Part shown: piece after piece, positions 1-10,259 of the stretch | Numbering within the stretch: position 1 is the stretch's first letter | Layout: every line of letters begins with the position of its first letter | NCBI GenBank assembly: GCA_035513155.1 | Contig: DATKCO010000021.1 | Span: 3,559 to 67,558, forward strand | Reading direction: 5' to 3' | From: Gemmatimonadota bacterium | GTDB taxonomy: Bacteria > Gemmatimonadota > Gemmatimonadetes > JACCXV01 > JAHWKZ01 | DNA: 64,000 nt | Translations under genes and position numbers: made by a program | The notes under the pieces: generated by a model | The model's database searches: none | What the model was told of the DNA's origin: nothing | Seen by the model: the letters and a program-made list of their open reading frames with translations, nothing else

Positions 1-2361
1 CGCCTGCGCCATCCGCATTCCGAGCTCCATCCCCGCGGGACGGCCCCCGATCGCCTCCACCATCGTCCCCAGCGCCCGCTCGAGCCCCCCCGTCACGACC
101 CGCTGGCGCGCGAGCCGCGCCGCCCGCTCGCCGGGGTCGTCGAGCCGCCCCTCGCGCTCGGCCAGCTCGCGCTGCCGCCCGGCCAGGAAGAGGGACTCCG
201 CCCCCGCCCGGTCGAGCGCCGCCCCGTGGGAACGCGTCTGCCCGCCCCCGGACTCCTCGCCGCGCGTCTGCCCGGCCGCCTCGCTCATCTCGGCGGCCGC
301 GTCCCGCTGCGCCGCGGCCGCCTCCGCGGGGTCGCCGGCCTCGATCTCGCCCGCCACCCGCTCCAGCGCGTCCTCGATTCCCGCCCGGGCGGACTCGGAC
401 AACCGCTCGGCCATCTCCCGGGCGGCGTCGGACAGCGCGGCCTGCCGCTCCGCCACCCTGCTCTCCAGCTCCTCGGACCGGGTTCCCGCCGTCTCGTCGG
501 CCAGCGCCGACTGGGCGTCGGCCAGGCTCTCGAGCGAGTCGGCGGCCAGCACCCGCTCGAGCGACCGCTCGATCCGCGCCAGCCGCTCCGCGATCGCCTC
601 GAGGACCGCGGCCCGTGCCTCCGCCGAGTCGGCAGGGTCGGAGGGCCGGCCCCGAGGCGGGTCCAGCTCGGCCGTCGCGACGCCCTCGAGCTGTCGCCGG
701 TATCCCTCCAGCTGCGCCGCGAGGTCGGGATCGAGACCGGGATCGGCCAGCGTCCGGTCGAGGGCCCGGGCCAGCGAGTCGGCGGCCGAGGCGAGGCGGC
801 GGTCCAGCTCCGCCGCCGCCTCCGACGCCTCTGGCCGGCCGGGCGCCTCACGCTCTTCGGAGGCCCGCCGGGCGGCCTCGAGCGCGGAGCGCATCTCCTC
901 CCCCGCCGCCGCCCGCTCCTCCGCCGCGGCCGCCCTCAGCGCGGCCTCGCTCGCGAGCACGACGGAGCGCCAGGGAGTCGCGACGGCCGCGCCGCTCGTG
1001 GGCCGCGCGACGACCCGGTAGCGAACCGTCTCGCCCGGCATCCGGCCGGCCGCCAGCGGCACCGGCGCGCTCACGATCGTGTCCCGGGCGCCCCCCACCG
1101 CCGCCAGGCGTCCCCCGCGCCCGTCCCCGGTCTCCCAGGACAGGGACGCGAGGCCTTCCGGAGCCCCCGCCCTCGCCTCGAGCCAGATCGCTTCCGCCGC
1201 CAGGCGGGCCGGATCGTCGACCGGGCGCAGGATCTCGACGAATGCGGCTCCCGGCACGGCCACCGCGAACGTCGGACCCTCGAGGACCTGCCCACCGCTC
1301 CCCCGGGCCAGGAGCCGGGCCGGTCCCGGCGCGAGATCGCTCACCGGGCCGCGGAACGAGCCCCCCGCGACCGCCAGCGGGACCTCGCGGCCGGCCGCGT
1401 CGATCACGCTCGCCGCCGCCAGCGGGCCGCTCGCCTCCCCCCGGATCTCGAGCCCCTCCCCCGCAGTCGTCGTGCGCCCGGCGAGGGGCTGCCAGGCCTC
1501 GCCGCCCGCACGGGCCTCGGCCCGCACCAGCGCCAGGGGCGGACGCACGGCGAGCGCGTACTCCGGGCTCGCCGCCGTCCCGTAGCGGAGACGGTAGCGC
1601 CGCTCGACGACCAGGTCCGGCCACCTCCATGTCCCCTCCCGCGCGGTGCCCAGCGTGTCGGCTTGCCACCCCCGGGAGCCCTCCCGCCACTCGAGCACGA
1701 GCGGGCCTTCCGCGACCGGGCCGGTGTAGGCGACCGCTCCGTCCACGTCCGCACCGTATTCGATCTCGATCTCGCCGGGGACCACCCGCCACAAGCCCGC
1801 GTCCTCCCGCCAGAGGGTGGTCGGATCGAGCACCGCGCGGACGACGCGGCGCGCGGCGGCCGGCTCGGCGAGACCGGCGAGGAGGGCGAGCGTGGCCAGG
1901 ACGAGCGCGCTCCTCCGGGCCAGCCCCAGCCGGTGGAGCGCGAGGTCGGAGAGGGCGCGGTCGAGCCGGTCGGCGCCGCGCCGCGCGAGCCACGCCCGCC
2001 CGCCGCTGACCCGCGCGCCCGGCAGGCCCCCATCCGCCCGCTCGAGAGACGCGACGACGCGGCCGCGGGCCTGGGGAAAGAGCCGCTCCAGCCGTGCGGC
2101 CACCGCGCGCGCTCCCGGAGCGGGTGCGGGCCAGCGCCGCCAGGCCCACGCGAGGCCTCCCCCCGCCAGCAGGGCCGCGGTCGCGTACCCCGCGGCGCGG
2201 GCGAGACCGGCGCCCGGCATGAGCGATTCCCACACGAGGACCCCAAACGCGAACGCCGCGCAGATCGCCGCCACCGTCCAGAGCATCCCGAGACGGCGGC
2301 GTCGCCTCTCCGCGGCGCCCAGCGTCCGAAGCTCCCGCTCCGGATCCAAACGGGTCGTCAT
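1..2361 (-). CDS. Large membrane-anchored hypothetical protein, at least 787 aa in the window. Its 3' end lies beyond the window start, and it is not in the ORF track because it has no stop codon within the window. The N-terminus has one to two TM helices (MLWTVAAICAAFAFGVLVW and AGYATAALLAGGGLAW). A beta-rich central region follows, then a long Ala/Glu/Arg/Leu-rich helical, coiled-coil-like C-terminal half. It may be DUF4175-like; that is an inference.
   Basis: I translated the minus frame that shares codon boundaries with plus ORF 226..2373. That plus frame contains no TTA/CTA/TCA codons from position 1 to 2373, so the minus frame is open over the whole span. The ATG is at 2359..2361 and shares one nucleotide with the upstream OMP stop (TGATG). 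The N-terminus reads MTTRLDPERELRTLGAAERRRRRLGMLWTVAAICAAFAFGVLVWESLMPGAG. The plus-frame product is Leu/Arg/Pro-rich with third codon positions mostly C, the in-phase antisense signature of a high-GC gene. Confidence 0.75.
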   Translation of the reverse strand, partial: MTTRLDPERELRTLGAAERRRRRLGMLWTVAAICAAFAFGVLVWESLMPGAGLARAAGYATAALLAGGGLAWAWRRWPAPAPGARAVAARLERLFPQARGRVVASLERADGGLPGARVSGGRAWLARRGADRLDRALSDLALHRLGLARRSALVLATLALLAGLAEPAAARRVVRAVLDPTTLWREDAGLWRVVPGEIEIEYGADVDGAVAYTGPVAEGPLVLEWREGSRGWQADTLGTAREGTWRWPDLVVERRYRLRYGTAASPEYALAVRPPLALVRAEARAGGEAWQPLAGRTTTAGEGLEIRGEASGPLAAASVIDAAGREVPLAVAGGSFRGPVSDLAPGPARLLARGSGGQVLEGPTFAVAVPGAAFVEILRPVDDPARLAAEAIWLEARAGAPEGLASLSWETGDGRGGRLAAVGGARDTIVSAPVPLAAGRMPGETVRYRVVARPTSGAAVATPWRSVVLASEAALRAAAAEERAAAGEEMRSALEAARRASEEREAPGRPEASEAAAELDRRLASAADSLARALDRTLADPGLDPDLAAQLEGYRRQLEGVATAELDPPRGRPSDPADSAEARAAVLEAIAERLARIERSLERVLAADSLESLADAQSALADETAGTRSEELESRVAERQAALSDAAREMAERLSESARAGIEDALERVAGEIEAGDPAEAAAAQRDAAAEMSEAAGQTRGEESGGGQTRSHGAALDRAGAESLFLAGRQRELAEREGRLDDPGERAARLARQRVVTGGLERALGTMVEAIGGRPAGMELGMRMAQA

Positions 2362-3515
2362 CAGGGTCGGTAGTTCATTCCTACCGCATAGATGTTCTTG
2401 GTGTAGAAATCGTTCAGAGTGATCGACTCGTTGCGATAGCGGCCGTAGCGGAGCTCGAGCGAGTAGTCGGGAGTCACGTCCTTGACGAGGCGGAGCAGCA
2501 GCACGTTGTTCTCGGTCTCCCCCGTATCGAGCGAGCCGGCCTGCGTGCTCGGGACGGGCTCGTTGAAGTCCCGCAGCTCGACCTGACCGTAGAGCTGGAC
2601 GAGCATCCCCCACGGGAGGCGCCGCAGCAGCTGCATCCCCAGGTTGTGGCTCACGTAGCTGAAGCCGAACGAGTTCGACTGGTTGAGACGGAAGCTGTAC
2701 TCCCCCTGCACCGAGACCGGGCCGAGCCAGGTCACGACCGTTCCCAACTCGTGCAGGTGGTCCTCCTGCCGGTCGCGCGTGATGCCGCGGATGATCGCGG
2801 TCGGGTCGTCGCCCGCCTCCAGCTTTCCGCGACCCGGATAGCGGATCCGATCGTAGGAGTAATCCCACGTCGCGGTCAGGTCGGTCCCGAACTCCTTGGT
2901 GATCGACGCGTACGCCCCGACCAGATGATTGCCGAAGTGGGCGTTGAGGTTCTCGAAGTCGGTGTCCGAGTAGCGCGCCCCGACCTCGATCCGCGCGACC
3001 TCGTCCTCACCCACCGGCTGCAGGTTCATCAGCCCGCTCACCGACCCGTTCATGCGGGTGAAGCCGTCCTCGTTGATGAAGAAGAAGCCGTCCATCCAGG
3101 CCCGGTTCTTCAACCCCACCGCCGCGCCCATCGCGAACCGGTCCGACAGTCGGCGCTGATAGCCCAGGGTGCCCTCGTTGACGAACTGGCTCGTGACGTC
3201 CGGCTCGTTGAAGCCGAAGTGGCGCTTGAGACCCCCCTGGTACGAGAGCGACACCCGCTGCTCCCCGGACGCGCCCCAGCGCAGGTCCCCGCGGTACGCC
3301 AAGCGTGCCACCTGGGCACGGACCGGATCGCTGATCCGGTCGGCCACGTTGTCGTCGATCTCGTACGTCAGGCGCACGTCGTGGTGATACGCCCAGGGCG
3401 ATCGCTCGAGAGTCTGACCGCGCAGGCCCGACGCGAGACAGGCGGTCAGGATGGCCAGCAGGATCAGCCCGCCGTGAGCCGGCCGTACCGACCGGACATA
3501 GCCTGGGGTTTCCAT
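2361..3515 (-). CDS. Outer-membrane beta-barrel protein, family not recognised, with signal peptide METPGYVRSVRPAHGGLILLAILTACLASG.
   Basis: The ORF track lists 2361..3536. The internal Met (METPG...) is preferred because a GGGAGG ribosome-binding site lies about 9 nt upstream. The sequence has the alternating amphipathic beta-strand pattern and is rich in Y/F/W/G/N/D/S/T. It ends NIYAVGMNYRP. Confidence 0.6.
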   Translation of the reverse strand: METPGYVRSVRPAHGGLILLAILTACLASGLRGQTLERSPWAYHHDVRLTYEIDDNVADRISDPVRAQVARLAYRGDLRWGASGEQRVSLSYQGGLKRHFGFNEPDVTSQFVNEGTLGYQRRLSDRFAMGAAVGLKNRAWMDGFFFINEDGFTRMNGSVSGLMNLQPVGEDEVARIEVGARYSDTDFENLNAHFGNHLVGAYASITKEFGTDLTATWDYSYDRIRYPGRGKLEAGDDPTAIIRGITRDRQEDHLHELGTVVTWLGPVSVQGEYSFRLNQSNSFGFSYVSHNLGMQLLRRLPWGMLVQLYGQVELRDFNEPVPSTQAGSLDTGETENNVLLLRLVKDVTPDYSLELRYGRYRNESITLNDFYTKNIYAVGMNYRP

Positions 3516-3540
3516 CGGATCGTTCCTCCCGCGCATGACG

Positions 3541-4440
3541 TTAATGATAAAACTCCCTCAGCCGCCCCGCGAACACCTCGGCCTTCCTCGAGTACTCGAG
3601 GCGCCGGTCTCGCAGATCGATCAGGCGTCGCTGGAGATCGCGGACCCTCTCGTCCGGGTCGTTGAACACCGCGACCCCCCGGCCCCCGGGGGTGTTGCTC
3701 TCCAGGATGGCGTCGAACACGCTCTCGGCCTGGATGCTCTGCTGGTCTCCCCACAGCGCGATGTCGTCCTTCAGGCGCTTGAACTCCTCCTGGTCCCGCT
3801 GTTTGCGGTTCAGCGCCTCGATCTGCTCCCGGATCACCGCGATCCGCGCGTCGATCTTGTCGACCGCGTCGCGGGCGATCGCCTCCTTGACCCGCAGCTG
3901 GCTGGGGCCGTCGGTCGGATCCAGCACCAGGTCGGGCAGGAACAGGTCGTCCTGCGCCTCTTCGATCTGGGGCACGAGCGCCTCCCGCGCCGCGACGTAC
4001 TGCCGCAGGGTCTCGGTCAGCCGGTTGAGCTCCCCCGTGTTCCCGGTTGTCTTCGGCAGCCGCTCGATCCGCTGGTTCGTCTCCGCGATCGCCTGGTTGT
4101 AGGCGTTGAACAGCTGGGTCTTCAGGTCCCGCATCTGCTCGTACAGGGTGCGCAGATCGCGCGCCACCCGGATCAGCTGGTCGCCCGTCTCGCGGATCCG
4201 GTTCGAGACGCTCTCGAACTGGGCGCTGCCGGCCGCCGTGCGGCGCTTGGCCTGGGAAAGGGAGTCGCCGCGGGCCTCGAGCGCCCGCTGGCGCGCCTCC
4301 AGGCGCGCGATCTCCGGCTCGCGCTGCGCGACGAGGCGGCGCAGCTCGACGATCCCGGGGCCCTGCGCGGCCGACTCGCCCGCGCCCGCCAGCAGCGCCA
4401 GCGCCACGCCCAGGAACAGGAGGCCGTGACGCCTAGCCAC
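3541..4440 (-). CDS. Secreted all-helical coiled-coil protein, 299 aa, with signal peptide MARRHGLLFLGVALALLAGAGESAAQ. Function unknown; it may be a periplasmic adaptor or stress-type protein.
   Basis: The ORF track protein shows heptad-like Leu/Arg/Glu/Gln periodicity throughout. Its stop lies 4 nt from the OMP ATG, and its start overlaps the stop of the response regulator by 8 nt. Confidence 0.6.
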   Translation of the reverse strand: MARRHGLLFLGVALALLAGAGESAAQGPGIVELRRLVAQREPEIARLEARQRALEARGDSLSQAKRRTAAGSAQFESVSNRIRETGDQLIRVARDLRTLYEQMRDLKTQLFNAYNQAIAETNQRIERLPKTTGNTGELNRLTETLRQYVAAREALVPQIEEAQDDLFLPDLVLDPTDGPSQLRVKEAIARDAVDKIDARIAVIREQIEALNRKQRDQEEFKRLKDDIALWGDQQSIQAESVFDAILESNTPGGRGVAVFNDPDERVRDLQRRLIDLRDRRLEYSRKAEVFAGRLREFYH

Positions 4441-5848
4441 CGCTCAGGCCGTACTTCTCGAGCTTGTAGTAGAGCGCGCTCGTCTTGATGCCCAGGAGCT
4501 CGGCGGTCTTCGTCTTGACGCCGCCGGCCTTCTCGAGCGCGTCCTCGATCATCGCGCGCTCGATGTGCTCGAGCGCGTTGTCGAGCGTGATCGCCCCCGC
4601 CGGCGGCACGCTCAGCGTGGCTACCGAGTTCGCCCGAGGGGTGCGTCGCTCGTCTATGGGGAACAGATGGGCCTCCAGCCGATCGGACTCGCACAGCACG
4701 ATGGCCCGCTCGATCATGTTCTCGAGCTCGCGGATGTTCCCGGGCCAGTCGTAGCGCATGAGCAGCTCCATCGCCTCGTCGGACACGCCAGCGACGGGCT
4801 TGGCCATCTCCGCGCCGATGGCGCCGATGAAGTGAGTGACCAGCGGCAGGATGTCTTCCTTGCGATCGCGCAGGGGAGGCACTTCGATGGGGATGATGTG
4901 CAACCGGTAGAACAGGTCCTCGCGGAACGCTCCCCGCTCGACCAGCGGCGTGAGATCCCGGTTCGTCGCGCTGATGATCCGCACGTCGACCGTGATCGTG
5001 CGCTCGCCACCGACCCTTTCGATCTCCTTCTCCTGGAGGACCCGCAGCAGCTTGACCTGGGTGGAGAGCGGGATGTCGGAGATCTCGTCCAGGAACAGCG
5101 TGCCCCTGTGCGCCAGCTCGAAGCGGCCCTTCCGCTCCCGGATCGCCCCCGTGAAGGCCCCCTTCTCGTGGCCGAACAGCTCGGACTCCAGCAGGCCCTC
5201 GGCCAGCGCCGAGCAGTTGACCTTGATGAACGGGGCGTCGCGCCGCGCACTCTCGCGATGGATGGCGCGCGCGATGAGCTCCTTCCCGGTCCCGCTCTCC
5301 CCGTAGACATAGACCGCCGAGGTGGCCTCGGCGACCTTGCGGATCGAATCGTAGATGTCGCGCATCGCGCCCGACCGGCCGACGATCTCGCCGAAGTGGT
5401 GCTCGACCTCCTCCCGGAGGTACTCCGCCTCCGCCTTGAACGCGTCGCGCTCCCGCTTGAGGTCGCGGGTGGCGAGCGCCTTGTCGACCTTGACCTTGAA
5501 CTCGCTCGGATCGAACGGCTTCGTGATGAAGTCCACCGCCCCCAGCTTCATGGCGTCGACCGCGATGTCGATCGTGCCGTAGGCGGTGATCAGCATCACC
5601 TCCGGATCTCCGGGAACCGGCTCGTCGCGGATCGCCTCCAGCAGCTGGAGGCCGTTCATGCCCTCCATCTTGAAGTCGGTGATGACCAGGTCCAGGGGCT
5701 CCTCGCGGCACTTCCGCAGGGCCGCGTCTCCGTCCTGGACGGCCTCCACCTCGTGTCCCGCGCGCTTCAGGACCTGCTCGATCCCCTCCCGCACCGTGGG
5801 GTTGTCCTCGACGACCAGGATGCGCGCCTTCCGTGTCGGCTCGCTCAT
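4433..5848 (-). CDS. Sigma54-dependent response regulator of the NtrC family, with REC, AAA+ sigma54-interaction and Fis-type HTH domains.
   Basis: It carries the receiver motifs (ILVVEDN...DLVITDFKMEG), Walker A GESGTGKE, the GAFTGA motif (EKGAFTGA), the arginine finger region, and the C-terminal HTH TKTAELLGIKTSALYYKLEKYGL. Confidence 0.93.
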   Translation of the reverse strand: MSEPTRKARILVVEDNPTVREGIEQVLKRAGHEVEAVQDGDAALRKCREEPLDLVITDFKMEGMNGLQLLEAIRDEPVPGDPEVMLITAYGTIDIAVDAMKLGAVDFITKPFDPSEFKVKVDKALATRDLKRERDAFKAEAEYLREEVEHHFGEIVGRSGAMRDIYDSIRKVAEATSAVYVYGESGTGKELIARAIHRESARRDAPFIKVNCSALAEGLLESELFGHEKGAFTGAIRERKGRFELAHRGTLFLDEISDIPLSTQVKLLRVLQEKEIERVGGERTITVDVRIISATNRDLTPLVERGAFREDLFYRLHIIPIEVPPLRDRKEDILPLVTHFIGAIGAEMAKPVAGVSDEAMELLMRYDWPGNIRELENMIERAIVLCESDRLEAHLFPIDERRTPRANSVATLSVPPAGAITLDNALEHIERAMIEDALEKAGGVKTKTAELLGIKTSALYYKLEKYGLSGG

Positions 5849-7350
5849 CCGCTGCTCCCCGCCACCGCCGTCTCCGACGGCCGGTAGGCGCTCGCCCCGG
5901 CGCTCACGGTCGGCAGCACGATGAAGAACACCGTCTTCTCACCCGGGACGCTCTCCACCCAGATCTCTCCGTCGTTCTCCTCGATGATCGAGCGCACGAT
6001 CGACAACCCGAGCCCCGCCCCGCTCCCCTTGGTGGTAAAGAACGGATCGAAGATCTGCTTCAGGTGGTCGGGGTGGATCCCCGCGCCGAAGTCCTTCACC
6101 ACGATCCGCGCCTTGCCCTGCGCCTCCTGCGCGAGGATCTCGACCCGCCCACCGGGCGACGAGGCCTGGACGGCGTTCTTCACCAGGTTGAGCAGCGCCC
6201 GCTTCACCTGCTCGACATCCGCGTACACCGCCAGCTCGCGGTCGGCCATCTCGACTTCGACCTCGACCCCGCGCTCGGTCGTGTCGCCGGAGAGCAGGAA
6301 CAGCACGTCGTCCACCACCTCGCGCAGCATGAACGGCTCGACGATCGCCTGCCGCGGCCGCGCGTAGATCAGGAACTCGTTGATGATCGTCTTCAGATGC
6401 TGGACCTCGCGGATGATCTTCTCGAGGTGGGAGCGCCGGCCGTCGGCTTCTTCCAGCTCGTCCCGCAGCAGCCCGGCGAAGATCTCGATGCCCCCGAGGG
6501 GGTTTCGGATCTCGTGCGCCACGCCGGCCAGCATCGTCCGCAGGTGCCGGTCCCGCCGCACGATACCCCGGCGCATGTTCTCGAGCGCGTTGCCCAGATA
6601 GCCGATCTCGTCCCGCGACTCGACCGCCACCGGCTCTCCGAGGTCGCCGCGCTCCATCCGCTCGGCCGACGAAACCAGCTTCCCCAGGGGATCCGAGAGC
6701 GTGCGGGCGAACACGACCCCGACCAGCACGGTCAGCGCCACCGCGATCAGCGTCAGCACGATCGTCGTCCGCCGGAAGTCGTGGAACACCTCGAGGAAGC
6801 CCAGCGAGAGATCGACGCCGAGCAGCGCGACGATCGCCTCCTGCGTCTGCGCCTCGTCGACGTAGCCGACCAGCGGCACCATCGCCGACTGGTAGACGTT
6901 CCCTTGCTCGTCGCTGAAGGGGTCGGTGATGACCGCCTCGCCGCGGAACGCTCGCTCGATCTCGCGCGCGTAGTTCTCGAGCCCCGGCGACACCGCTCCG
7001 ACGTCCATGCCGACCGTGTCGGTCGTGGCCAGGATCCGGTACCCCCGGTCGAACACGTACGCCTCGCGCACGCCCAGCCGGCGCTGCATCGCCTGGAGGT
7101 GGCCCTCCGCCAGCATCTGGGTCCGCGGCCCCACCTGGTTGACCAGCGCGGTCGCGGTCAGCGGATCGATGACCAGCGCGCCCGCCTCCGCGACCGCCAG
7201 CAGCCGGTTCTCGGTCTCTTCGCGGACGTGGGCGGTCGCCACCCGGTACCACACCATCGCGCTGGCGACCACGAGCACGGTCACCAGCAGGATGAACGTG
7301 ACGATGAGCTTCGTGCGGATCCGGTTTCGACGCTCTGTCATGGGAGCCAT
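5845..7350 (-). CDS. Sensor histidine kinase. Two TM helices flank a periplasmic sensor domain of about 150 aa, followed by HAMP, HisKA and HATPase_c domains.
   Basis: It has the H-box AHEIRNPLGGI, the N-box LLNLVKNAVQAS and G-boxes DFGAGI and GSGAGLGLSIV. TM segments are LIVTFILLVTVLVVASAMVWY and TTIVLTLIAVALTVLVGVVFA. Its stop overlaps the start of the response regulator. Confidence 0.9.
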   Translation of the reverse strand: MAPMTERRNRIRTKLIVTFILLVTVLVVASAMVWYRVATAHVREETENRLLAVAEAGALVIDPLTATALVNQVGPRTQMLAEGHLQAMQRRLGVREAYVFDRGYRILATTDTVGMDVGAVSPGLENYAREIERAFRGEAVITDPFSDEQGNVYQSAMVPLVGYVDEAQTQEAIVALLGVDLSLGFLEVFHDFRRTTIVLTLIAVALTVLVGVVFARTLSDPLGKLVSSAERMERGDLGEPVAVESRDEIGYLGNALENMRRGIVRRDRHLRTMLAGVAHEIRNPLGGIEIFAGLLRDELEEADGRRSHLEKIIREVQHLKTIINEFLIYARPRQAIVEPFMLREVVDDVLFLLSGDTTERGVEVEVEMADRELAVYADVEQVKRALLNLVKNAVQASSPGGRVEILAQEAQGKARIVVKDFGAGIHPDHLKQIFDPFFTTKGSGAGLGLSIVRSIIEENDGEIWVESVPGEKTVFFIVLPTVSAGASAYRPSETAVAGSSG

Positions 7351-7420
7351 CTGCCTGTCCTAAGCTACGTTAGCCCGGATACCCCGTCAAAACACTCGAA
7401 GGTCGGGCGAATTCCGGGCC

Positions 7421-8125
7421 TCAGTGGGTCAGCGCGTAGACGAAGACATTCGCCCCCATCTCCAGCGCCGCCCGGCGAACGACCGGCGGATCGCCGTGCA
7501 CGGCGGCGTCCTCCCAGCCGTCCCCGAGATCGGTGTTGAAGGAGTAGAAGACGACCAGCCGTCCGTCGTGATACACCCCGTAGCCCCGCGGGGAGCCGCC
7601 GGCGTGCTCGTGCACCTTCGGCAGCCCGGTCGGCAGCGGGAAGGCGGCACGGTAGATCGGATGGTCCGCTGGCAGCTCGACGAGCGGCTCCTCGGGGAAC
7701 ACCCGGGCGATCTCGCGTCGCAGCGTGGAGTCGATGCCGAAGTTGTCGTCGGCGTGGAGGAACCCGCCGCCCACGAGATATCCCCGCAGCGACCGCACCT
7801 CGGCTTCGGTGAGGCGGATGTCGCCGTGGCCGGTGAGATACAGGAGCGGGTAGCGCCCCAGGGACGGGTCGGTGGCGGACACGACCGCTTCACGGTCGGC
7901 GGTCGACAGCTCGAGCTCCTCGCGGACGAAAGCCAGCAGGTTGGGAAGCGAGGTGGGGTTCGCGTACCAGTCGCCCGGCGCGTACCGGAGGCGGGCGATC
8001 GTGAGCGGGGAATCCGGCGGCGTCGACGCCCGGCCTCCCAGACCCTGCCCCTCGGCCGGCATGGCGAGGAGGACGACCGCCAGCGCGGCCCCGCCCAGCC
8101 GACCGCCGTTCCCGAGTCTCCTCAT
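7421..8125 (-). CDS. Secreted protein of the DUF4159 family.
   Basis: The start is taken at internal Met 66 (MRRLGNGGRLGGAALAVVLLAMPAEG), which has a signal peptide and forms an ATGA overlap with the rsmI stop at 8122. The upstream part of the ORF is an Arg/Pro-rich artefact. Motifs YAPGDWYANPTSLPNL and LYLTGHGDIRLTEAE are characteristic. Confidence 0.7.
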   Translation of the reverse strand: MRRLGNGGRLGGAALAVVLLAMPAEGQGLGGRASTPPDSPLTIARLRYAPGDWYANPTSLPNLLAFVREELELSTADREAVVSATDPSLGRYPLLYLTGHGDIRLTEAEVRSLRGYLVGGGFLHADDNFGIDSTLRREIARVFPEEPLVELPADHPIYRAAFPLPTGLPKVHEHAGGSPRGYGVYHDGRLVVFYSFNTDLGDGWEDAAVHGDPPVVRRAALEMGANVFVYALTH

Positions 8126-8985
8126 TCCCCGGTCTCCTGCTGGACGGCCCGGTAGATCGCGTTCCGCTCCCCGGGATAGACGCAGGCCAGCACGTCGGTC
8201 AGGCCGCGGGCGGAGAGCTCCTGGCCGGTGCGGTCGCGGCGCAGCTCGCGCAGGGCGTCGCGCCACGGAAGCGCCCGGCCGGCCCGCGTCTCGCCCGTCC
8301 CGGCGAGGACGATCACGCACTCCCCCCGCAAACGACCCTCGCGGCCCGCGAGTTCAGCGGCGACCGATCGCGCGGTCCCGGTGACGAATTCCTCGTGGAC
8401 CTTGGTGAGCTCCCGCGCGAGGGACACCGCCCGCTCCGGCGCCAGCCCGGCGATCGCCGCCAGCGTCGCCGGCACGCGCGTCGGGGCCTCGTACACGACC
8501 ACGGTCTCCGACCGTTCCAGCGCCTCCGACCACCATGTCTCCCGCCCGCGTCGCGGGGCGAAGCCGAGGAAGGCGAACCGGTCCGTCGGCAGGCCGGACG
8601 CCGCGAGCGCGAGAAGCAGGGCGCTCGGTCCCGGCACCGGAACCACCTCGATCCCGGCCTCCCGGGCCGCCACCACGAGCCGGTACCCCGGGTCCTGGAT
8701 CGCGGGCATGCCGGCCTCGGACACGAGCGCGACGTCCGCGCCCGCCGTGAGGCGCGCGATCAGCCGGGGCGCGACCGCCCCGGCGTTGTGATCGTGGTAG
8801 GCGACCAGCTCCGGCGGCTCCATTTCCATCCACCCATAGAGCGCCAGGCAGGTGCGGGTGTCCTCGCACGCCACGATCCCGATCCGTCCGAGGACCTCCC
8901 GCGCGCGCGGCGTGAGATCGGCCCGGTTCCCGATCGGGGTGCCCACGAGCCACAGCGACCCGCGCGCCGCTCGACCGGAGTTCAT
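8122..8985 (-). CDS. rsmI: 16S rRNA (cytidine1402-2'-O)-methyltransferase
   Basis: Motifs: LWLVGTPIGN, DLTPRAREVL, IVACEDTR, LVSEAGMP.IQDPGYRLV. This is the tetrapyrrole-methylase fold typical of RsmI. Confidence 0.9.
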   Translation of the reverse strand: MNSGRAARGSLWLVGTPIGNRADLTPRAREVLGRIGIVACEDTRTCLALYGWMEMEPPELVAYHDHNAGAVAPRLIARLTAGADVALVSEAGMPAIQDPGYRLVVAAREAGIEVVPVPGPSALLLALAASGLPTDRFAFLGFAPRRGRETWWSEALERSETVVVYEAPTRVPATLAAIAGLAPERAVSLARELTKVHEEFVTGTARSVAAELAGREGRLRGECVIVLAGTGETRAGRALPWRDALRELRRDRTGQELSARGLTDVLACVYPGERNAIYRAVQQETGE

Positions 8986-10259
8986 TCGGGCTCGCGGCGG
9001 ACGTCGGCTCCCAGCGCGCGCAGGCGCCCGTCAATGCTCTCGTAGCCGCGGTCGATCTGGTGGACGTTCTGGATCACCGACTCGCCGCGCGCCGCGAGCG
9101 CGGCGATCAGGAGCGCCATCCCGGCCCGGATGTCGGGGCTCGAGATCGGCGCGCCCGCGAGCGCAGCCGGGCCGGTCACCACGACCCGATGCGGGTCGCA
9201 GAGGATGAGCCGCGCCCCCATCCGCTGCAGCTGATCGACGAAGAACAGGCGGCTCTCGAACATCTTCTCGTGGATCAGGATCATGCCGCTCGCCTGGGTC
9301 GCCACGACGACCATGATCGACGTCAGGTCCGCCGGGAACCCCGGCCAGGGCGCGTCGTCGAGCTTGGGCACGGCGCCGCCCGCGTCATCCACCACCGCCA
9401 GCCGCTGGTCGCCGGGGACGTGCACGTCGTCGCCGTCGGTCTCGATCCGCACGCCGAGCCGCTCGAACCCCAGCCGGATCATCGGCAGGTGCTCGACACC
9501 CGCTTGCCGGATCGTCAGATCGCCGCCCGTGACCGCGGCCAGCCCGACGAACGACCCGACCTCGATGTGGTCGGGGCCGATCCGGTGGATCGAGGGGCCG
9601 AGGGCCTCGACGCCGTCGATCTCGAGCAGGTTCGTGCCGATCCCGCGGATCGACGCGCCCATCCCCACCAGCATGCGGCAGAGCCCCTGGACGTGGGGCT
9701 CGGAGGCGGCGTTGGCGACGCGCGTGGTCCCGCGGGCACGCACCGCCGCCATCACCGCGTTCTCGGTCCCCATGACGCTCGCTTCGTCGAGGAAGATGTC
9801 GGTCCCCCGCAGGCCGTCCGGCGCGCGGATCACGTACTCCCGCTCCTCGACCGTGATCTCGGCGCCGAGGGCACGGAACGCGAGCAGGTGGGTGTCGACG
9901 CGGCGGCGCCCGATCCGGTCGCCTCCCGGAAGAGGCAGTCGGACCCTTCCCCGGCGCGCCAGCAGCGGCCCCGCGAGGAGGAACGACCCGCGGATCCTGC
10001 GCGCGGTGTCCAGGTCGGGGGCGGCGGCGCCGGCCGTGCCCACCGTCACCGCGTGGTCCTCCTGCTCGACCGTGCACCCGAGGTCCGCGAGCATCTCCAC
10101 CATCGTCCGCGTGTCCGCGATATCCGGGACGTTCTCGATCCGCACGGGCTCTTCCGTGAGCAGGGTGGCGGCGAGACACGGAAGCGCCTCGTTCTTGTTC
10201 CCGGCCGGCACCATCTCGCCCTGGATCGGCCGGCCCCCGACGACGACGAGCTGCTCCAT
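8982..10259 (-). CDS. murA: UDP-N-acetylglucosamine 1-carboxyvinyltransferase
   Basis: The true start is the internal MEQLVVVGGRPIQGEMVPAGNKNEALP; the ATG at 10257..10259 was confirmed in the sequence. The catalytic Cys region is present and there is full-length similarity. The start forms a TGATG junction with the prmC stop. Confidence 0.92.
   Translation of the reverse strand: MEQLVVVGGRPIQGEMVPAGNKNEALPCLAATLLTEEPVRIENVPDIADTRTMVEMLADLGCTVEQEDHAVTVGTAGAAAPDLDTARRIRGSFLLAGPLLARRGRVRLPLPGGDRIGRRRVDTHLLAFRALGAEITVEEREYVIRAPDGLRGTDIFLDEASVMGTENAVMAAVRARGTTRVANAASEPHVQGLCRMLVGMGASIRGIGTNLLEIDGVEALGPSIHRIGPDHIEVGSFVGLAAVTGGDLTIRQAGVEHLPMIRLGFERLGVRIETDGDDVHVPGDQRLAVVDDAGGAVPKLDDAPWPGFPADLTSIMVVVATQASGMILIHEKMFESRLFFVDQLQRMGARLILCDPHRVVVTGPAALAGAPISSPDIRAGMALLIAALAARGESVIQNVHQIDRGYESIDGRLRALGADVRREPE

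Follow-up and report, generated by a model that had tools for sequence, protein, structure and literature searches.

A conserved 1024-codon gene cut by the edge of a Gemmatimonadota sequence window encodes a putative, highly diverged membrane protein of the DUF4175 superfamily

Introduction

Proteins covered by the NCBIfam model TIGR02302 ('aProt_lowcomp') carry 2–3 transmembrane (TM) helices at the N-terminus and, behind them, a long region of low complexity that lies outside the membrane; together with the Pfam family DUF4175 (PF13779) they make up the DUF4175/TIGR02302 superfamily. Here we analyse a gene at the edge of a 64,000-nucleotide stretch of DNA from a Gemmatimonadota bacterium (GenBank assembly GCA_035513155.1, contig DATKCO010000021.1, positions 3,559 to 67,558 of the forward strand), referred to below as the window. 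The gene, called the large gene throughout, occupies window positions 1–2361 on the minus strand and runs off the window start. Its product is, by remote homology, a DUF4175-superfamily member that probably acts as the inner-membrane-anchored periplasmic scaffold of a conserved extracytoplasmic module, which in the clade of the window organism (the target clade) has acquired genes for a histidine kinase (HK), a response regulator (RR), a coiled-coil protein and a protein resembling outer-membrane proteins (OMP-like).

A DUF4175 relative described below is encoded next to genes of Bat operons (MoxR–DUF58–BatA/BatB VWA). The products of these 'aerotolerance-type' operons are located in the membrane or periplasm, and their envelope-related function is unclear. 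The literature searched contained no functional study of DUF4159, the family of one module partner, and only passing mentions of DUF4175, TIGR02302 and MoxR/DUF58/BatA. Published evidence that the DUF4175 family acts in the envelope is thin. A TIGR02302 gene of Rhodobacter sphaeroides is activated by CenR, non-essential and part of the CenKR envelope regulon (PMC9275681). In Acinetobacter baumannii the annotation of AdvA, a critical protein for cell division, includes a DUF4175 domain, and AdvA has two predicted TM helices, both upstream of residues 203–238 (PMC7481262). On this annotation AdvA may be a relative of the large protein. Its DUF4175 domain lies upstream of residue ~203, so that the match can cover no more than a small part of the 825-position Pfam model.

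Results

The open frame at the window edge is a conserved gene

Three features were defined at the window edge.

1..2361, minus strand: first 787 codons of a 1024-codon coding sequence for a predicted divergent DUF4175-superfamily membrane protein (open frame, coding-type GC values, homologues, profile–profile alignment)
2359..2363, minus strand: TGATG junction, read from the sequence, in which the TGA of the upstream OMP-like gene (2363–2361) and the ATG of the large gene (2361–2359) have one base in common
226..2373, plus strand: antisense shadow open reading frame (ORF), not a gene (GC1 of 0.93 above GC3 of 0.83; Arg/Gly/Pro/Leu-rich product; all homology in the opposite frame)

A sequence-only reading of the window had proposed that a real gene, with an open minus-strand frame of at least 787 codons, runs off its start. 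Translation of positions 1–2361 gives 787 sense codons and no stop, and the in-phase plus frame contains no TTA, CTA or TCA codon between positions 1 and 2370. The GC contents of the three codon positions (GC1/2/3) are 0.83/0.62/0.93 in minus frame 0 and 0.93/0.62/0.83 in the plus frame. The former is the pattern expected for high-GC coding DNA, the latter an antisense signature; the order GC3 > GC1 > GC2 occurs in minus frame 0 only, and no other frame is favoured. The product of plus ORF 226..2373 consists of 20% Arg, 14% Gly, 13% Pro and 10% Leu, which agrees with the antisense origin that the same reading had assigned to it. The one-nucleotide overlap between the ATG and the upstream stop was likewise read correctly. 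The gene is missing from the ORF list because ORFs running off either source end are not listed, so that its absence is due, as supposed, only to a stop beyond position 1.

Stop codons are few in high-GC DNA, and the open frame might be a chance product of ~80% GC or the plus ORF the real gene. Several overlapping ORFs of more than 400 residues are listed in this region, and long spurious frames do occur: the frame of the large gene is also open for ~215 codons 5' of its ATG (2362–3006), through the OMP-like gene, which is read in another frame. An open run of 787 codons has a chance probability of ~2e-4 at the local base composition (79% GC). With a frame that extends to position 3006 through the adjacent gene, base composition by itself is a weak argument, and it is homology, not chance probability, that is decisive for the minus frame. 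In addition to the codon-position pattern, 25 homologues at 44–100% identity over the full length, a confident structure model and conserved synteny speak against a chance frame. For practical purposes this explanation, of negligible probability, is already refuted by cross-genome protein conservation in the minus frame.

A search of 5.8 billion proteins identified the complete product. GenBank protein P0001 has 1024 residues, is 100% identical to the window fragment and begins at the same start codon (ATG 2361–2359); therefore the last 237 codons and the stop codon are located past the window edge at position 1. It is annotated as 'MAG TPA: hypothetical protein VMR66_02180 [Gemmatimonadota bacterium]' on a 67.9-kb contig. 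The gene is thus already deposited as a hypothetical protein and is not unannotated. Besides P0001 the search returned 24 homologues at 44–86% identity, most of them near full length (990–1034 residues) and three shorter and probably truncated. The near-full-length homologues keep this length and contain no frameshift. In an alignment of 18 members (A1), which reaches down to 44% identity, 166 columns are invariant and are spread over all regions. Among 185,579 species-representative genomes scanned, the close family turned up in only eight loci, all from Gemmatimonadota metagenome-assembled genomes. Window positions 1..2361 of the minus strand are therefore the 5' three-quarters of a genuine, conserved 1024-codon gene cut by the window edge.

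The large protein is a remote member of the DUF4175 superfamily

The hmmscan proposed in the sequence-only reading was unproductive: the large protein gave no significant match to a Pfam or NCBIfam model. Searches of Pfam, NCBIfam and PADLOC with the fragment, the full-length protein and five relatives, and of PDB sequences with the large protein, revealed nothing significant. PF13779 (gathering score 27.3 bits) did not match the window fragment at E ≤ 0.1, nor P0001 and five family members at E ≤ 1. TIGR02302 (curated cutoff 394.3 bits) did not match the large protein, and the distant relative P0043 reached only 23.8 bits. The best library matches, Exo70_C (E 0.08), SiaA (0.04) and GldL (0.41), as well as a beta-1,3-glucanase match over the beta-rich region (E 0.0058), were judged to be noise.

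Relatives were reached by a profile search of 1.84 billion cluster representatives, which returned 396 proteins at E ≤ 1e-3. Many of these are ~1050–1290 residues long and aligned end to end with E-values of 1e-20 to 1e-8. Among 43 long relatives, 25 match PF13779 at E ≤ 1e-3 (best E 3.2e-22), some above the cutoff; P0043, for example, scores 58.9 bits. With hhalign, the family of the large protein aligned with ~1100-residue relatives over 989 columns (18–1023 versus 10–1103) with a probability of 100% and E 2.5e-65. Since this alignment joins it end to end with relatives that match PF13779, the large protein is assigned, on profile evidence, to the DUF4175/TIGR02302 superfamily, as a highly diverged branch from Gemmatimonadota and as its positional orthologue.

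The family resembles DUF4175/TIGR02302 proteins in its N-terminal TM helices with an A..E...P loop motif, the beta-rich region, the long low-complexity helical region, the length class and a conserved C-terminal tail motif, and it also has DUF4159 and tetratricopeptide repeat (TPR) proteins as neighbours. It differs in that the large protein and its clade remain below every Pfam and NCBIfam threshold, in being nearly lysine-free with 22% alanine, and in an operon with four extra genes.

Architecture of the large protein

The following parts were delimited.

2134..2289, minus strand: TM hairpin, TM1 (residues ~25–47) and TM2 (~53–76), after an Arg-rich, presumably cytoplasmic N-terminus (hydropathy; model helices H7–47 and H53–76)
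1918..2133, minus strand: Arg-rich segment between TM2 and TM3 (residues 77–148), helical in the model and predicted to be cytoplasmic by the positive-inside rule
1852..1917, minus strand: TM3 (residues ~149–170), beyond which ~855 residues are placed outside the cytoplasm by prediction (hydropathy; model helix H130–165)
958..1794, minus strand: three tandem Ig-like beta-sandwich domains (residues ~190–273, 278–368 and 374–468; AlphaFold strands, pLDDT mostly 85–93)
1..948, minus strand: start of the all-helical, acidic, Ala/Glu/Arg/Leu-rich C-terminal region (residues 472–1015, in the window to residue 787; model helices of 19–50 residues with short loops between them, pLDDT up to 97)

Hydropathy analysis detected three hydrophobic segments, at ~25–47, 53–76 and 149–170. 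An AlphaFold2 model built from the alignment has a mean predicted local distance difference test score (pLDDT) of 80.7 and a predicted template-modelling score (pTM) of 0.43; for 245 residues the pLDDT exceeds 90. Both analyses bear out what had been read from the sequence, namely TM helices at the N-terminus, beta structure in the middle and a C-terminal half rich in Ala, Glu, Arg and Leu, which is helical in the model. With three hydrophobic helices followed by ~855 residues, whose orientation is predicted, the protein has the architecture described for TIGR02302.

According to the positive-inside rule, the N-terminus and the 77–148 loop would be cytoplasmic and the remaining ~855 residues periplasmic. 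A periplasmic location of the latter agrees with the signal-like N-termini seen on those partner proteins that were examined. The 77–148 segment contains the most conserved N-terminal motif of the family, A..LERLFPQARG, in which E92, R93, P96, Q97, R99 and G100 are invariant among the 18 aligned members. It aligns with the A...E...P.....L...LEL motif of DUF4175-type relatives. The Ig-like region contains many invariant W, G, P and R residues in the same alignment. A Foldseek search of the PDB with the full model gave generic tandem-Ig matches alone (E ~1e-5, template-modelling scores ≤0.14 relative to the query), and the helical half had no Foldseek match in the PDB. The helical half is modelled as ~17 helices of 17–50 residues between 472 and 1015, broken by a Gly-rich linker at 831–848. 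Residues 471–1024 carry a net charge of −33, and the region is conserved across the family.

The sequence-only reading had loosely compared the architecture with DUF4175/TolA-like proteins. The DUF4175 part of this guess has stood, on the remote homology reported above (hhalign E 2.5e-65; PF13779 matched by 25 of 43 relatives), and the TolA part has not. A TolA/TonB-like energy transducer would combine an inner-membrane anchor and a periplasm-spanning helical domain with a proton-motive-force motor coupled to the outer membrane. The large protein shares with TolA of the Tol–Pal system the predicted inner-membrane anchor and the long Ala- and charge-rich (Ala/Glu/Arg) helical, presumably periplasmic region, and relatives of the module have a TPR partner with YbgF/CpoB-like repeats; an OMP-like gene lies upstream, and the PDB sequence match to GldL, very weak and not significant at its E-value of 0.41, points in the same direction. 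However, the protein has neither a TolA C-terminal domain nor any TolA or TonB domain, and in the loci examined there is no TolQ, TolR, ExbBD, TolB or Pal domain or neighbour. Its TM helices number three where TolA has one, three Ig-like domains precede the helical part, and this part is modelled as a series of short packed helices (many of 20–50 residues) with no single extended helix. We therefore regard a transducer of this type as very unlikely.

A four-gene module is conserved across lineages

Genes beyond window position 1 were taken from orthologous loci, numbered L001 to L015 here. In four lineages, namely L004, L005, L014 (Gaopeijia maritima, which is in culture) and L015 (genome of 2.86 Mb), genes for a DUF4159 protein, the large protein, a TPR protein (585–660 residues) and a protein of ~410–450 residues are adjacent; in L014 and L015 the reading frames of this four-gene module overlap. 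The order in the target clade is TP_methylase, DUF4159, HK, sigma54-dependent RR, 299-residue coiled-coil protein, 391-residue OMP-like protein, large protein, TPR protein and a protein of ~404 residues. This nine-gene order is kept in the Gemmatimonadota loci L001 and L007–L010; contig ends truncate L006 and L013, whose remaining genes follow the same order. A JGI contig has this arrangement as well, as judged by length and Pfam content.

DUF4159 directly adjoins the large gene in L004, L005, L014 and L015, and the four-gene block between them occurs only in the target clade. Because of this adjacency, the HK, RR, coiled-coil and OMP-like genes appear, from the gene orders compared, to have been inserted into an ancestral compact operon in the target clade.

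In a different setting, L002 (10001–22556), the order is DUF4175 (above the PF13779 cutoff), TPR/Peptidase_MA_2, MoxR, DUF58, BatA-VWA, DUF4159 and a 691-residue gene product with two TM helices. Through this cluster the DUF4175 and DUF4159 families are connected with operons of the MoxR/Bat type, and no paper describing such a link was found in the literature searched. P0043 is thus encoded directly beside MoxR, DUF58, BatA-VWA and DUF4159, and the operon of the large gene has kept DUF4159 (window 7424–8047, minus strand). Unlike Bat proteins, the large protein contains neither a VWA nor a BatD domain. MoxR, DUF58 and BatA/VWA genes do not adjoin the module in L004, L005, L014 or L015.

The probable operon in the window

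Upstream of the large gene, the window contains the following genes.

2361..3536, minus strand: secreted 391-residue protein, possible outer-membrane beta-barrel; inserted gene (signal-like N-terminus; position conserved)
3541..4440, minus strand: secreted 299-residue coiled-coil protein; clade-specific insertion (signal-like N-terminus; position conserved)
4433..5848, minus strand: sigma54-dependent RR; insertion (Response_reg, Sigma54_activat and HTH_8; 86–89% identical in L006–L009)
5845..7350, minus strand: HAMP histidine kinase; insertion (HAMP, HisKA and HATPase_c; position conserved)
7421..8320, minus strand: secreted DUF4159 protein, core module partner (tblastn with the L001 and L002 DUF4159 proteins, homology 7424–8047)

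HK and RR genes overlap by 4 nt, RR and coiled-coil genes by 8 nt, and the OMP-like and large genes by 1 nt; 4 nt separate the coiled-coil and OMP-like genes. A terminator scan of window positions 1..9000 found none, and a sigma70 promoter scan of the same region revealed nothing convincing. The sigma54 promoter TGGCAC-N5-TTGC was rejected as a candidate, with 21 matches at ≤2 mismatches versus 36 expected by chance and none well placed. Overlapping or near-abutting genes without a terminator suggest co-transcription.

The product of the large gene could act mainly in signalling, by co-sensing in the periplasm with the HK and sigma54 regulator encoded next to it or by modulating them, and not as a structural scaffold. 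The HK and RR genes were inserted in the operon of this clade and overlap their neighbours, a large PAS/HAMP kinase precedes DUF4159 in L004, and the loop that holds the best-conserved N-terminal motif is putatively cytoplasmic. Yet the four-gene module is free of kinases in Gaopeijia, L015 and L005, and in L002 it is MoxR, DUF58 and BatA that keep company with the family. Since the compact module lacks a kinase in those three lineages, the kinase linkage is clade-specific and secondary. Pfam and NCBIfam scans detected no known sensor or transducer domain in the large protein. A signalling role is hence an unlikely alternative to a scaffold, if one to be kept in mind.

The 391-residue protein has 87 homologues, and all of those with an organism name are from Gemmatimonadota. 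Its near-full-length homologues contain no Pfam domain, and the window protein itself has no Pfam match. OMP_b-brl is touched by two of 18 family members (best E 6.7e-4) and SlipAM also by two of 18; a PDB profile search with the family revealed nothing relevant. The 'OMP' label that the upstream gene had received from its sequence is plausible and weakly supported.

For the 299-residue protein the only library matches, including those in PADLOC, are weak and concern proteins with long coiled-coil regions. A role in a defence system or phage was dropped, as PADLOC gave no other match. The GTG start of its gene (4440) overlaps the RR stop by 8 nt, and homology to orthologues begins at about residue 28. 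This start is plausible because residues 1–27 look like a signal peptide.

PF13709 matches the DUF4159 orthologue of L001 with E 1.1e-63. The DUF4159 ORF of the window has 299 residues (GTG at 8320), and its homology to orthologues of 222–251 residues covers 7424–8047 only. In its long form it would run ~200 nt into the TP_methylase ORF upstream (8122–8985). The listed GTG start is, as judged from the orthologues, probably too far upstream.

Partner proteins

Signal-like N-termini were found on partner proteins of L001, L004 and L005. The TPR partners of relatives contain YbgF/CpoB-like and BamD-like repeats. Genes for the ~410-residue partner are located at L001:14817–16031, L004:15281–16630, L005:15356–16618 and L014:10001–11251; the orthologue of the L001 gene is expected ~2.5 kb beyond window position 1.

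No Pfam or NCBIfam model matches the ~410-residue partner, whose homologues number at least 8000; its NCBI name is 'asparagine synthetase B'. Its AlphaFold model (pLDDT 80.9, pTM 0.84) matches class-I glutamine-amidotransferase (GATase)-like hydrolases, namely PuuD (E 4.5e-6), SpuA, ThuA-like proteins and the glutaminase domain of CTP synthase. An invariant Cys232 is located within the motif GGFLFAMC. AsnB contains a class-II amidotransferase domain. As the model is class-I-like, the name is probably wrong for this protein and looks like a misannotation that has been propagated.

Composition and evolutionary rate

The GC content of the large gene is 0.80 versus ~0.68 in its neighbours. A foreign origin was considered and rejected: the GC3 of 0.93 is as in the neighbours (0.90–0.94; the DUF4159 ORF, probably over-extended, is the exception at 0.82), and GC1 and GC2 account for the excess. 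This excess is due to the amino acid composition of the protein (22% Ala, 13% Arg, 11% Gly). All 18 clade members in A1 have 0–3 Lys versus 113–164 Arg per ~1000 residues and 19–25% Ala. Elsewhere, Lys amounts to 0.3–5.5% in the products of neighbouring genes, and distant DUF4175 relatives contain up to 74 Lys. The scarcity of lysine probably reflects GC-driven drift in a fast-evolving protein; selection against lysine is a conceivable cause as well.

Between L001 and other lineages, DUF4159 is 52–59% identical and the GATase-like partner 46–52%. The large protein reaches at most 26% over partial alignments or is undetectable by BLAST, as is the TPR partner. From these identities, the scaffold-like pair of large protein and TPR protein evolves much faster than the enzyme-like pair.

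Such values would also be expected of a drifting, largely low-complexity protein that is losing its function in this clade, with the gene under relaxed constraint. The extreme composition (including the near-absence of lysine), the low identity to positional orthologues compared with DUF4159 and the GATase-like partner, and the loss of the DDYG and A.DN motifs are all in line with this. On the other hand, length is kept at 990–1034 residues with no frameshift in near-full-length homologues, the 166 invariant columns cover all regions down to 44% identity, 245 residues are modelled with pLDDT >90, and translational coupling and gene order are kept. Functional decay is thus improbable.

Discussion

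In the reading we favour, a scaffold of an extracytoplasmic module, the large protein would be anchored in the inner membrane by its Arg-rich N-terminal part, the TM hairpin, the loop and TM3. About 855 residues would reach into the periplasm, with three Ig-like domains followed by ~550 residues of packed helices. There it may organise three secreted partners, namely a DUF4159 protein, a TPR protein and a Cys-dependent GATase-like protein, into an envelope complex. In the target clade the complex would be under two-component control and perhaps linked to the outer membrane, as is suggested by the HK, sigma54 RR, coiled-coil and OMP-like genes that joined the operon.

Several points weigh against this reading. 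The large protein misses both the PF13779 and the TIGR02302 model. The DDYG and A.DN motifs in the third beta domain of the relatives are replaced by GAPxGL and ARP, and a binding function of the relatives may have been lost with them. The pTM of 0.43 leaves the domain arrangement in the model undefined, and the predicted topology comes from hydropathy, model helices and the positive-inside rule. The scaffold role itself, including physical association with the partners and an envelope function, we infer from architecture and gene neighbourhood alone. A tblastn search with the L002 proteins found no MoxR, DUF58 or BatA in the 64-kb window or in L001. Finally, the DUF4175, DUF4159 and GATase-like families have no member with a demonstrated biochemical function.

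As a more speculative extension, for which we claim only a low likelihood, the insertion of four genes could have rebuilt the ancestral four-gene module of this uncultured clade into a regulated trans-envelope apparatus, with accelerated co-evolution of scaffold and TPR protein. If this were true, the apparatus would be an envelope machine not described before, built around a Cys-dependent, amidotransferase-like hydrolase in the periplasm as its enzymatic core.

For gene finding, the locus illustrates that ORFs dropped from ORF tracks because they cross the edge can hide real genes; the in-phase antisense signature identified the large gene correctly. Taken alone, the gene adds a divergent new member to a known family without assigned function and would not surprise a specialist. 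It extends the uncharacterised DUF4175 superfamily into Gemmatimonadota lineages that current Pfam and NCBIfam models miss. Of greater interest as a lead is the wider module, itself uncharacterised. The large gene helps to define it as a compact, widely distributed set of DUF4159, DUF4175-like, TPR and class-I GATase-like proteins, and any work on the function of this module would supply annotations for thousands of genes now called 'hypothetical' or misnamed 'asparagine synthetase B'.

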